Source of the DNA: Somniosus microcephalus
Taxonomy: Eukaryota
Length of the DNA: 64,000 nt
NCBI GenBank assembly: GCA_052327205.1
Contig: CM126203.1
Span: 272,118,001 to 272,182,000 of the forward strand
Direction of reading: 5' to 3'
Shown here: piece after piece, positions 56,893 through 64,000 of the stretch
Position numbering within the stretch: position 1 is the first letter of the stretch
How the letters are laid out: each line of letters starts with the position of its first letter
Notes under the pieces: model-generated
Database searches by the model: none
What the model saw: only the letters and a program-made list of their open reading frames with translations
Told to the model about the DNA's origin: nothing
Translations under genes and position numbers: made by a program

Positions 56893-57138
56893 TGTTAAGT
56901 CTGTGTGTTATATTGAGAATTACTACACAGACCACAAGAGTAAAATTTAACAGGTCTTCACTGGTTGAAGGTCAGGGCGGAACTGCCCAATAAATCCTTA
57001 CACAGCACTTATATACCGGTGTGGTCACCACCGGTATTACAGTATACAGCAGCCAAGATAAAGTAGTGCAACTCTTAAAATAGTTCTCTTAAAGGTGGAA
57101 CGGTTCTCTTAAAAGGTGGAACGGTTACATACACTACA
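56893..57138 (-). repeat. 3' LTR of the chimeric element (~246 bp)
   Basis: Starts TGTAGTGTATGTA like the sister LTR; shares the block tatac.ggtgtggtcac..ccggta.tacagtatacag; ends ...TTAACA; internal 20-21 bp tandem duplication at about 57083-57123. Confidence 0.85.
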
Positions 57139-57230
57139 ATCCTCCCTTTTTAGCTTAACAGTATATATTTCCCATTAAACATAACATCATAACATATATA
57201 CACAACTTCATGTAAGAACAGTTCACAGAT

Positions 57231-57850
57231 TCAGTCTCTGAGGCGGCGCCTCCTGACTCGGTCCGGATAACGCCTCGGTGGTGTAGTAGTTTTCGGTGGT
57301 GTAGTAGGTTTTCGTTGCTGGGGTGACTCATCTAATAGTCCTTCACTGGACTTAACAGCTTGAATTTTCGTAACTTCAGAACCAGCATTGTTGACTTCTA
57401 AAGGCTCGAGTACCTTGGGAAGTTTTTCTGCGTCCAGACTGATTTGGCTCAGTTCGGAGGGACCACGTGCGTGACCTGGTAGGGGTGATAATGGTTCAGA
57501 TGAGTCATCATCTTCATCATCCTGGGACAACTCACATGAATATACTAGATTGCTGTCCTCCTCAGTATCTACGTCCTCCAAATGTTTTATTATTTCTATT
57601 TTTGGAGCTTCAACTGTGAGTGTGGCTGTGGTCTGTGCATTACTTGATTTGCAGCTATATTCACCAGAGTCTTTGGGTATGAGATTTGTAATGGTAAGTT
57701 CTATCACATTCTTCTTTTGTTTAAATTTGTTTCGGTCAGAAGATTCGATTAAGCTCTGGTCTTTGTACCATCTGACCATCTTGGGAGTAGGTGTAAACTC
57801 ACAGCTCAAAGTAGCCGAATGCTTCTCTTCCCCTGTAATGTTCTGTAGTT
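57231..57850 (-). CDS. Chimeric ORF, part 2: rest of titin-like Ig, STK10-like linker, Gypsy C-terminal tail
   Basis: In frame with part 1 once the CR1 is removed: KVVKE|LQNITGEEKHSATLSCEFTPTPKMVRWY...DSGEYSC...; stop at 57231-57233. Confidence 0.88.
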
Positions 57851-60800: not shown

Positions 60801-61216
60801 TTGTTTTTTGTTCCTCACCCTTTTACCATTTATTTCTGTCTGCCTTTCACTTTCCTCTATTTCACTACATAGGTTTCTAGCCCCCTGCCATACTAGTTTA
60901 AATGCTCCCGAACTGCTTTATCAAAAATTACCCCGAGAACATCAGTTCCATCTCTGCACAGGTGTAGACCGTCCCTTTTGTATAGGTCACACCTACCACA
61001 AAACTGGTTCCAATGCCTCAAAAATTTAAAACCCTCCCTCTTACACCACTGCTCAAGCCACGTATTTAGCCTAACTATCCTGTTCTCTGTACTCTTACTA
61101 GCACGTGGCACTGGTAGTAATCCAGAGATTACTACCTTCGAGGTCCTACTTTTTAGCTTGGCTCCTAACTCCCTAAATTCTACTTGTAGGACCTCTTCCC
61201 TTTTTTTAGCTACGTC
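57851..61216 (-). mobile_element. Young CR1 LINE, truncated within ORF1, ORF2 intact
   Basis: (TATGTATC)n tail at 57851; flanked by a 3-bp direct repeat (gtt at 57848-57850 and 61217-61219). Confidence 0.96.
57951..60818 (-). CDS. CR1 ORF2: APE endonuclease and reverse transcriptase (955 aa, uninterrupted)
   Basis: [50 protein letters not shown]; no stops. Confidence 0.95.
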   Translation of the reverse strand: MRNKKQRAKLIHKKCEHKKSLRVLYLNARSIRNKVDELAVEIEVNNYDLIGITETWLQGEQGWELNIQGYSVFRKDRQKRKGGGVALLVKEGINAIEKKDINSVNTESIWVELRNSEGRKTLIGVVYRPPNSKIEVREGITREIREACNKSTAVIIGDFNLHIDWTSLISKNNEEEEFLECLRDGYLDQYVEEPTREQAILDWVLCNEKGLISNLVVRGPLGQSDHNMIDFSLEMESEEIDSETKVLNLNKGNYDAMRRELSRSDWTTFLGGLEVDKQWQTFKDRMTKLQKLFIPIWHKRKSKKVTQPWITGEIRDSIKSKDRAYKIAKKSARAEDWEQFKIEQRRAKGMIKRGKIAYENKLAENIKTNSKSFYKYIKRKRLVKTKVGPLQSDTGEYIMGNKEMADQLNAYFGSVFTKEDTKNLPGISGKIGTLAKEELTQINISKDMVLRKLKGLKVDKSPGPDNMHPRVLKEVALEIADALRMIFQNSLDSGTVPMDWRVANVTPLFKKGGREKAGNYRPVSLTSVVGKMLESIIKDEIAEHLANGDRIGQSQHGFTKGKSCLTNLLEFFEGVTGRIDGGEPVDVVYLDFQKAFDKVPHKRLAWKIEAHGIKGKVLAWIGNWLSDRKQRVGINGSFSEWQAVTSGVPQGSVLGPQLFTIYINDLDQGVGCSISKFADDTKLGGGVGSEEETRKLQSDLDRLGDWADKWQMHYNVDKCEVIHLGCRNGRANYYLNGNRLGEGEVQRDLGVLVHQSLKASMQVQQAVKKANGMLAFIAKGLEYRNRDTLLQLYRALVRPHLEYCVQFWSPHLRKDVLAMEGVQRRFTRLIPGMAGMTYEERLCSLGMYTLEFRRLRGDLIEVYKILTGLDRLDAEGMFPLAGENRTRGHNLRIRAKPFRTEMRGNFFTRRVVNLWNSLPQRAVYASSLNIFKRELDIFLRAKGVKGYGEKAGTGY

Positions 61217-63665
61217 GTTCTTTGACTACCTTTGACGGAGGCTCTTTAATAGTCAGCCTCGCCTTAGATTTTGATTTCCCTGCAATAAACTGCAGCAAGC
61301 CGGTCATCTTAGAAATTGTTTTTTTCAGAGTGAGACGATGAATAGTGCCACAATGCTCAATGTCCACATCTTCAGAAGCATGAAGAATTTCACCATTTAG
61401 TATCCATTTTGGAGGCTTCACGTCAGCAACTGAAAGCTCACACTCAAGAATGGCGTCACTTGGCTCTGTCACTTCCACATCACATATGGGTTTAATGATG
61501 GCAATTGATTGCTCTTCTACATATAACTTTGCTGTGCTTTGGTCATCTATGGCGTCGCACATGTAGTTGCCTTCATCTTCAAAAGCGACATTATTAATAA
61601 CGAGCTTCCTGTACACATCTTCACTCACAATCTCATATTTATTACTGGGATGAATCTCTTTGTCTTTGTAATACCACTTGACAGCATTTGGCCTGGAAAC
61701 CTTGCATTCGAAAATGACACGATGTTTTTCCATGCCAATCTTCTCTCTTAAGGGTTTCACAATTTTAACTGGCAATTCTTTAATTCGAAGCAAAGCTCTG
61801 GAAGTAGCGCTTTCAGCAACAAACTTGATCTCTGCAGCATCTTCAGTCTTTGCCTCTGCCACCAATTCCCTGAGTGGCTTATTACTACTGACACTGCTCA
61901 CAAAAGTGTGCTCTTTCTTCTTAGCTTTCAACTGATCGATGAATTTGACATATTCCCTTTCTTGCTCAGCTTTGATTCGTTTGGCCTCATCGCGCAGACG
62001 GTTTGTGTGTTCCTGTTCCATTTTCTCAATCAGCTGCTTCTGTTGTCTTTCCAGATTCTCCCACTCTGTGTCAAAGAACTTTTTCTTTGCATTCATCTCT
62101 TGCTCAAAACGGCGAATCATTTGTTCTAATTGCTGTTGTAGTTTGAAATTGAGTTGAATTCGAGCCCGGTGTTCCTCAGAAATGTGCATGTCTGTAGACT
62201 GGACAGACTCAGAATTCTCTGTCAAACTATGTTGTTGCTGTTCAGTGGAATTCTGTTCTGATACTTTGTTCTCTCCTGAAGCATTTATACACTCCTTCGT
62301 TTTTCCATCATTAGTCTGCAAGTCCATTTTAGACTTGTCTTTTGCACATGGGCTGGTCTTACCATCATCAGTTCCAGGGTCTGAGCTGATTGTCTTCACC
62401 GAGTTCTCACTCTCTGCTTTGTCACTGTCACTGCTGCATATGCCCTCATCCAATATTCTGGACAATCGTGCAGGTTTGACATCTTTTCTTTTTCCGGAAT
62501 CGCCCGTTATTGCTTTTAGGGGGTGCCAGTCCATATTTATTTTCCTGATCCACTCCCGTCCCAGAAGTGGTGGACCTCCCTCAGGTAGTACATATATGTC
62601 CATTCCTTGGTGTTCTTTGCCCTTATGTACCACCTTGACTTTTATCCTTCCGATGGGGTATACTCTTTGCCCCGTGTATATCTTTAATACTATCTCCGTA
62701 TCCCGTAGGGGAATATGTGTGAATAACCTTTTGTAATCTTGCTTATTCATGACCGTCAACGCCGATCCGGTGTCCAATTCCATCTTCACTTGGACTCCTG
62801 CTATCTGCAGGGTGACCCAGATAGTTTGTCGGTCAGCTTCCTTACTCACATTGTGAATTCTCAGACTACCCAGTTCCTTGCTGTTGGAGTCTGAATCCGA
62901 ATTCTGTTCATCCGAACTCTTCTCAGCCACCTTGTGTACCTTGCTGCACTTTTCCTGTGGTGACTTTTTGTTGCTGGTCTTCTTTCCTGACCGGCATACT
63001 TTAGCTATGTGACCAAGCTTGCCACATTTTCTACATTCCTGGTTTTTAAACCAGCATTGGTTCTGATCGTGTGTTGTCTTCCCACAACGATAACATTTCG
63101 TTGTACCCAAAGCCATTTGATCTACGCTGAGTACCGCTGCCTTCAGCTGCATTTCCGCAGTGCCTCTCGCTGCGGCTTTGTGCGATGCTGCAATAGAGAC
63201 AGCCTTATCAAGTGTAAGATCATTCTCTTCAAGTAGCCGCTTTTGTGTTCCTTCTTTCGACAATCCGCACACGAATTTGTCTCTCAGTGCCTCTGTCAGT
63301 CCTTCCCCAAACTGACAGTATTTCGCTAGCTTACGCAGTTCAATTAAGTACTCCGCGTTGCTTTCCTCTTTCAGTTGCGTTCTCGCATAAAATTTAAATC
63401 GTTCCGCTAACATCAGCGGTGTGGGGTTCAACTGATCCTTCAGGACAGCAACAATATTAGCGAAAGTCTGATCCGCCGGTTTAGCTGGTGATAGAAGATG
63501 CTTCAATAGCCCGTATGTCTTCGCACCCATTGAGTTTAGTAAGGTTAATGCTTTATCTTCATTTGATATTTTATTTGCCTTACAATATATCTCTATGCGT
63601 TCTACATACGTGGCCCAATCTTCAACATCGGGATCGAAATCGTTGATGTTACCACGCTTAGGCAT
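61217..63665 (-). CDS. Chimeric ORF, part 1: Gag-protease fused to STK10-like linker and coiled coil and titin-like Ig domains
   Basis: ATG at 63665 (MPKRGNI, compare sister MPKSGSI); two CCHC knuckles; ELDTGSA; then EEHRAR...AKKKFFDTE...[25 protein letters not shown] and I-set Ig repeats; cut by the CR1 at 61216. Confidence 0.88.
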
Positions 63666-64000
63666 CCTCGCGATCTTCTTGAGAAACAAAAGAATTTTTT
63701 TTTTTTCTTTTACAAAATGGCGGTTTCCCGCGCTTGTCTTCTTCCCCCGCCTCCGAAAATGGCGGCTTCCCGCGTTTGCCTTTCTCCCCCACTGACTGTA
63801 ATGGCGATTGCCGTATTGCTGCGTTCGCCCTCCCCCAGCGGTTTTCAAATCGCGCCTCCCAGCCCCTCTTGCAGTCCGGTCCTTTCCCCCCGGCTGCAGC
63901 GGAGTTCTCCGCGTTTTTTTTAAAATTTTCTCCCGCGCCTTACGCTGACCCGGTCGCTGCGCCTCGCGGCCTCGGTAGCTGCCCGGCCTTTTTCACCGGT

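Follow-up and report, generated by a model that had tools for sequence, protein, structure and literature searches.

Back-spliced STK10 exons in place of reverse transcriptase and integrase in a non-autonomous Gypsy family of Somniosus microcephalus

Results and Discussion

A 64,000-nucleotide stretch of the genome of the shark Somniosus microcephalus (assembly GCA_052327205.1, contig CM126203.1, positions 272,118,001 to 272,182,000 of the forward strand; hereafter the window) ends in a long terminal repeat (LTR) retrotransposon that begins at position 56,893 and runs past the window end. The element is one young copy of a non-autonomous Gypsy family. We consider it likely that in this family reverse transcriptase (RT), RNase H and integrase were replaced by back-spliced exons 8-12 of the host gene STK10, probably copied in one turn of a circular RNA (circRNA), and that the element uses its own Gag and protease and borrows RT and integrase. 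An original prediction, made from the sequence alone, had read the element as a helper-dependent Gag-protease fusion to complementary DNA (cDNA) of two host genes, a linear piece of STK10 followed by titin.

Structure of the window copy

All features of the element are on the minus strand. The reading frame opens at ATG 63665 and enters a CR1 long interspersed nuclear element (LINE) without a stop, giving 816 codons to 61218; the first stop lies inside the CR1 and yields 819 codons. A second frame of 205 codons (57848-57234) is found 3' of the CR1, and the two parts sum to the 1021 codons originally predicted. Pfam searches of both parts identified a zinc knuckle, an aspartyl protease, PKK and I-set Ig domains, and revealed no RT, RNase H or integrase, also as predicted.

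The end of the 5' leader occupies 63666-64000 and is followed by gag (62870-63665, the lower limit being approximate), whose residues 210-225 form a CCHC zinc knuckle, and by the aspartyl protease (62544-62816), with the DTG motif at 62766-62774. The gag-protease region is 96.6% identical to that of a copy bearing pol. A 13-residue protease motif was present in 72 of 97 copies with host-derived sequence (cargo), variant in 13 and not found in 12. At the other end, the last integrase-tail codons and stop of the pol-bearing parent (57231-57326) precede a polypurine tract (57139-57151), the 3' LTR of 246 bp (56893-57138) and the right target-site duplication GGCAG (56888-56892). A search past the window end, as the original prediction had proposed, located the 5' LTR (246 bp, TG...CA) at 456-701 bases beyond it, with 1 of 246 bases different from the 3' LTR. 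The primer-binding site TGGCGACGAG directly follows the 5' LTR and, like the left GGCAG, lies just outside the window. The copy thus has the two LTRs (TG...CA), primer-binding site and polypurine tract of an LTR retrotransposon and is flanked on both sides by a 5-bp target duplication.

The CR1 (57851-61216) contains a 988-codon endonuclease/RT frame (57951-60917), carries a 3-nt AAC repeat at its ends and splits what is one continuous exon in the host obscurin gene. This CR1 is in none of the 39 other copies fetched. The results agree with the predicted later insertion of the CR1.

The cargo begins at a 5' switch point (62444-62455), a 12-nt sequence, TATTGGATGAGG, identical in the parent pol and STK10 exon 9. 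STK10 exon 9 bases 146-430 (62174-62458; 97.5% identical to the host exon) end at an in-frame 381-nt deletion into exon 11, and exon 11 bases 38-124 are spliced to the entire exon 12 (61911-62177; 97.7% and 98.3% to the host exons), which includes the PKK coiled coil (PF12474). The end of exon 12 is then joined to the start of exon 8 at host splice sites (junction 61908-61920, join between 61911 and 61910). Exon 8 bases 1-70 (61841-61910) lead into the 5' part of the obscurin cDNA (61217-61851), composed of parts of four exons that are spliced together in the order of the host gene and match contig 5 at 24.715-24.726 Mb with 97-100% identity. Beyond the CR1, the 3' part (57509-57850) completes the interrupted exon and continues for 101 nt into the following one (97.5% and 98.0%). 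The final interval (57327-57523), left unassigned in the original prediction, is STK10 again: the end of exon 8 and exon 9 bases 1-159, at which the turn closes on the starting site of the cargo. STK10 is therefore present on both sides of the Ig cargo in the exon order 9-11-12-8-9, and obscurin, sitting inside exon 8, was inserted after STK10. The linear STK10 piece of the original prediction is in fact a permuted, back-spliced set of exons with obscurin placed inside it later.

Permuted STK10 exons and the putative circular template

When compared with the sawshark protein, the cargo matched STK10 residues 388-704 followed by 291-390, and the nearest STK10 proteins are those of sharks. The host gene is on contig 8, where each exon is single-copy in the 100 kb examined; exon numbering assumes one small unseen early exon. 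The donor of host exon 10 is GC instead of GT. A second STK10/SLK-like kinase gene is located on contig 8 at 2.305-2.42 Mb, with one match in an 823-codon open frame.

Ten copies with a full cargo were fetched from a candidate list; six contained an 848-codon frame and three were mapped at the DNA level. The mapped copies consist of exon 9 (from base 146), exons 10, 11, 12 and 8, and exon 9 again (to base 159), intron-free and with 97-100% identity. The first base of the full cargo is host base 17493 and the last is 17506; that is, the cargo is the circle once with a self-overlap of 14 nt. This site has 12 exact nt in common with the parent pol at the 5' switch and 6 nt with the integrase tail at the 3' switch. 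In the back-splice, the exon 12 donor (GAAGAAAGAG, then gtaaaa in the host) is joined exactly to the exon 8 acceptor (ttttaacag in the host, then CACCC), a non-colinear junction of a donor with an upstream acceptor of the kind that distinguishes circRNA-derived pseudogenes. Exons 8-12 sum to 1,245 nt, or 415 codons, a multiple of three.

The probability of two random ends both falling on splice sites is approximately 3e-4. Since the ends of exons 7 and 12 have only AG in common, a jump on linear mRNA would have little guidance. No exon from outside the circle was seen, only residues 290-704 being represented among 47 candidates scored. The junction of the window copy is one base off the exact sequence, which has 834 matches in the genome. 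The distance from host STK10 was 1.1% for full-circle copies, 2.3-3.2% for the classes with deletions and at least 8% for a lineage with optineurin and zinc-finger cargo described below. In every class, six differences from the host gene recur in all or almost all copies, a pattern that would fit either a single capture or a later change in the host. The literature searched contained no mention of 'circSTK10'.

Copy number and the pol-bearing parent

A junction-spanning query of the 6.45-Gb genome produced 40 scored matches, all with 98-100% identity. The 39 other copies (39/39) are without the CR1, and in 11 the natural frame is 1019-1025 codons, consistent with the multicopy family originally suggested. 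An exact 5-bp target duplication was found in 27 of the 29 copies for which both LTR ends were found, the other 2 having one mismatch; the remaining 10 of the 39 were unscored. The LTR pairs of fetched copies differ at 0-7 sites. Two of the 39 copies with common flanks were counted once in later analyses. Copies on contig 36 (45.17 Mb) and contig 32 (14.71 Mb) have the identical target duplication and flanking CR1 pieces, which points to a segmental duplication or a duplicated haplotype. The 39 additional copies, together with junctions present in contigs of two other organism labels, ruled out misassembly.

Exact junction sequences were counted at 834 for the back-splice, 293 for STK10-obscurin, 2,189 for STK10-optineurin and 116 for protease-KMT2, with 0 for each reversed control. 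Since the back-splice site is absent from 26 inspected optineurin copies, the junction counts add and indicate at least approximately 3,000 cargo copies, of which the optineurin lineage is the most numerous. First-look candidate counts of 42,278 and 1,734 are not copy numbers and were not used. An 'empty' element, with the protease joined directly to the tail, had 0 matches. On contig 1 at 10.17 Mb, copies of the optineurin lineage share one orientation at a spacing of about 4.4 kb and seem to be arranged head to tail.

The genome also contains the pol-bearing parent of the family. Exact matches to a 27-mer taken from the protease end number 3,742, and the first 40 consecutive ones on contig 1 comprise 29 copies with pol and 11 with cargo. 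The pol-bearing copies have a single gag-pol frame that ends just before the polypurine tract, LTRs as in the cargo copies and 5-bp duplications; the frame is open over at least 1317 codons in 6 of the 29. Their domain order of protease, RT, RNase H and integrase is that of Ty3/Gypsy elements, the last three domains being those the window copy is without. In a gag-protease tree the full-circle copies intermingle with one pol subfamily (weak support). The pol-bearing copies form two subfamilies with gag, protease and RT in common and an integrase half only about 72% identical, likely the result of old recombination. The intron-free host cargo in frame, the short matches and the pol-bearing relatives bear out the predicted helper-dependent transducing element.

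Later cargos

The Ig cargo is colinear with obscurin, the source being five spliced exons on contig 5 with 97-98% DNA identity; at the protein level, identity to obscurin was 56-58% across the whole cargo and 85% in a catshark fragment. Titin, the source originally named, was rejected: PDB matches favour it only at low identity, and the DNA match is to the one obscurin locus. The STK10 assignment was upheld by the host exons. The original count of two host genes holds for the window copy, with at least three further cargos in the family.

One of these consists of six spliced exons of a contig 17 gene that lies behind a NEMO-family exon, which we take to be optineurin based on that position and on an FVEI motif; Pfam and PDB searches returned no name for the piece. 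Compared with three element copies, the host exons of this gene at 85.8847-85.8855 Mb contain two additional bases in short homopolymers; these would throw off the host frame and are likely an assembly error, the other possibility being a broken allele. A second cargo of 481 nt (99% identity) derives from within one large exon behind an FYRN exon on contig 26, in a gene that is presumably KMT2A; the piece extends over what we take to be the first taspase-1 site, QVDGADD, and ends immediately short of the second. A zinc-finger piece (PF12171), presumably DNAJC21-like, was found in 19 of 20 consecutive optineurin-junction loci. Mixed cargo forms also exist. The obscurin, optineurin and KMT2 cargos are in host exon order, thus giving no sign of a circular source, and their switch-point matches are about 5-10 nt and in some cases imperfect. 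As in LTR-mediated retrocopies, spliced host exons (STK10, obscurin, optineurin) replace internal open reading frames at short switch-point matches with no poly(A).

RNA and protein data

Two RNA runs were chosen by species label, and the species of the runs may differ from that of this genome. In both, reads reach every one of the 30 bins of a copy without the CR1, with a strand pattern compatible with sense RNA in one run and a mixed pattern in the other. In the two runs 54 and 38 reads, respectively, leave the protease on a pol-bearing stretch and continue as STK10 at the switch point, which supplies the RNA across the gag/protease-STK10 junction that the original prediction had proposed to look for. 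The junctions with STK10 and with KMT2 are also found in contigs of two other organism labels. Of the reads over the last base of exon 12, 91 of 104 and 109 of 123 had the host base, which suggests that they cross the back-splice site. The fused protein was not among the 120 matches listed of 1,980 in public protein sets (8,000 candidates scored), a result of little weight.

Selection on gag, cargo and reading frame

Gag is conserved, the cargo is near neutral, and stops and frameshifts are depleted in the translated cargo. Changes in at least three copies (shared) were compared with changes in one copy (private), a rough split made without a tree. In 22 copies of the optineurin lineage, with rearranged optineurin parts and the zinc-finger piece excluded, the ratio of shared nonsynonymous to synonymous changes (N:S) was 46:76 for gag (omega 0.23, p 6e-5 versus private) and 34:37 for the protease (omega 0.35, p 0.06). 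The ratios for STK10 and optineurin were 58:26 (omega 0.79) and 62:29 (omega 0.86), and cargo differed from gag with p 1.5e-7. In a younger set of 68 copies, which leaves out one duplicate and nine copies that had been selected on protein score, STK10 showed 62:16 shared versus 125:54 private and obscurin 20:9 versus 124:49. The optineurin FVEI motif was changed in 11 of 26 copies.

The 1,040 nt of translated cargo in the 22 copies contained 1 shared disruptive change versus 175 substitutions, compared with 8 versus 107 among private changes (p 0.003). The only shared disruption is one stop, at a CpG, and shared frameshifts are zero. The 156-nt tail piece, which in part of the lineage is downstream of the stop, contained three shared frameshifts and two stops (5 versus 30, p 0.0005). 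The STK10 pieces of this lineage have drifted to 74-96% identity. Shared rearrangements were tallied by hand, not counting a homologous tail swap, and were in frame in 18 of 20 cases; short matches alone predict 0.40-0.53 (p at most 5e-4). The two exceptions are a stop about 90-100 codons upstream and an alteration of the last eight codons. A shared stop in STK10 exon 12 (7 of 68 and 6 of 22 copies) lies at a CpG and occurs scattered across classes, and we take it to be recurrent. A shared 'stop' in gag was an artefact of a multiply changed codon.

Evaluation of alternative explanations

Several observations weigh against a circular template and a selected reading frame. A search for an inverted match between introns 7 and 12 found none, and the reads crossing the back-splice may all derive from element copies, which are indistinguishable from RNA of the circle. 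In the 68 younger copies the difference between shared and private changes was weak for gag (37 N:44 S versus 110:73, p 0.03) and not seen for the protease (p 0.7), and the depletion of disruptive changes gave p 0.13, significant only with removal of two doubtful cases. The sub-lineage in which the stop has shifted about 90-100 codons upstream is a successful one, and the last eight codons are frameshifted in many copies. Finally, gag could owe its conservation to recombination with an unsampled sister family that bears pol and not to selection in cis.

It is unlikely that the cargo domains are made and have an effect on the success of the element or on the host, with the Gag-protease fusion placing coiled-coil, Ig or autophagy-binding domains in particles. 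The maintenance of one long frame, the presence of chimeric RNA and the abundance of the optineurin lineage (2,189 exact junctions) are consistent with such a function, but the cargo omega of 0.79-0.86 versus 0.23 for gag, the obscurin ratios, the frequent changes in FVEI and the swapping, deletion and mid-domain cutting of cargos argue against it. A filler role for the cargo is the likely replacement for the particles carrying host domains that were originally proposed.

It is similarly improbable that the open frame is a by-product of young copies, of short matches favouring in-frame switches and of gag conservation borrowed from helpers. In favour are the 40-53% of switches that short matches alone would place in frame, the LTR pairs with only 0-7 differing sites, the stop moved upstream in one sub-lineage and the recombination of cargo copies with pol-bearing ones; opposed are the 18 of 20 shared rearrangements in frame and the zero shared frameshifts in 1,040 nt, versus three in the 156-nt tail, in a lineage at 74-96% STK10 identity.

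We regard it as very unlikely that the permuted STK10 arose by repeated template switching on linear mRNA, by trans-splicing or from tandemly duplicated exons: the two splice sites are joined to the base, the ends of exons 7 and 12 have only AG in common, the end of the cargo meets the site where it began, and the 100-kb host stretch has no exon duplication. In favour of such origins, multiple switches are documented for LTR-mediated retrocopies in the accessible part of PMC5131818, and other routes to non-colinear joins have been noted (PMC4897178).

Proposed mechanism

Based on the switch points and exon order, the capture of a circular template can be envisioned as follows. An STK10 circular RNA would be co-packaged in a Gypsy particle, where RT would enter the circle at the 3' match and run once round it. 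At the entry point RT would meet the gap left by its own RNase H and would have to switch, at the 5' match, back onto the Gypsy RNA; removal of the template by RNase H is established RT biology. Later in-frame swaps at short matches brought in the spliced obscurin and optineurin pieces and the KMT2 piece. The element would spread with RT and integrase supplied in trans by pol-bearing relatives and Gag acting in cis.

The cargo would serve as filler that must remain translatable if the stop is to remain close to the 3' LTR. Since the single frame of the family stops approximately 90 nt before the polypurine tract, an open filler would preserve the stop position, most likely allowing escape from nonsense-mediated decay or preserving a cis effect of translation on packaging. 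The accessible portions of two papers describe unspliced retroviral RNA with a long 3' untranslated region as a target of nonsense-mediated decay (PMC2925335) and discuss cis preference for vertebrate Ty3 (PMC13558583). A broader proposal, to which we give somewhat less than even credence, is that particles routinely package circRNAs, that RNase H forces exit after one turn and that frame selection turns the family into an in-frame exon-shuffling engine with thousands of transcribed Gag-host chimeric frames.

Relation to known systems

Transducing gag-onc retroviruses contain host cDNA fused in frame to gag and are helper-dependent. Unlike these, the shark family is an intracellular Gypsy family without env whose cargo protein bears no mark of selection; a helper with env is likewise missing, the pol-bearing copies having one gag-pol frame. 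The gag-onc analogy of the original prediction is thus not supported in the functional sense, the cargo amino acids being near neutral and FVEI changed in 11 of 26 copies.

The closest precedent for the junction is that of the mouse circRFWD2 pseudogenes, of which 33 high-confidence copies have a non-colinear back-splice junction, no poly(A) and a position beside MMERVK10C-int (PMC4897178). Both are genomic copies with a back-splice junction in an LTR context. That report called the mechanism mysterious and gave no switch points, whereas the shark family reveals the parent, both switch points, the full turn, an in-frame gag fusion, 834 junctions and cargo swaps.

The following comparisons refer to the accessible parts of the papers cited. 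In LTR-mediated retrocopies, spliced host RNA replaces internal open reading frames at matches with a median of 6 bp, with several genes per copy and some elements non-autonomous (PMC5131818). The word 'circular' is absent from the main text and each case has few insertion sites, whereas the shark family has thousands of copies in which selection on gag and on the frame is measurable. Maize Bs1 is an LTR element whose single hybrid frame combines pieces of three host genes (PMC13317346, PMC5131818); it is a plant element proposed to be a functional gene, with no circular source mentioned, in contrast to the near-neutral drift of the shark cargo. Mouse IAP 1-delta-1 is non-autonomous and its own gag fusion protein acts in cis, and it out-jumps full-length copies (PMC6466679); that fusion results from an internal deletion and is without host cargo. 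No such family is described in the accessible parts of PMC13320880, PMC13343379, PMC13558583 and PMC2925335. The literature searched, which excluded most subscription papers and supplements, contained no report of this family or of full-turn capture of a circle with both switch points. Circle-derived pseudogenes, LTR retrocopies and Bs1 are thus known, and the full-turn capture with both switch points appears to be new.

The copying of circRNAs into genomes was left open at its first description; here the donor gene, helper, switch points and later stages are found in one genome. The family shows how circular RNAs may be written back into genomes, offers a concrete mechanism with testable predictions and separates selection on the reading frame from selection on the protein in a vertebrate LTR element. 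Element copies will confound the calling of circular RNAs and the annotation of STK10, OPTN and OBSCN in sharks.

Other features of the window

A transfer RNA scan found none. A frameshifted Gypsy gag-pol of a related sister family is present at 39745-42488 on the minus strand, and a tandem repeat of about 2.3 kb (18200-20500), rich in GC and skewed between the strands, adjoins a stretch of 163 N bases. Frames at 53945-54823 (minus strand) and 43781-44575 (plus strand) are presumably remnants of Harbinger-type transposases. A 1,203-codon frame at 438-4049 on the plus strand reads like what we take to be a large exon of CSPG4/NG2, and the Gypsy element may be antisense in or behind this gene.

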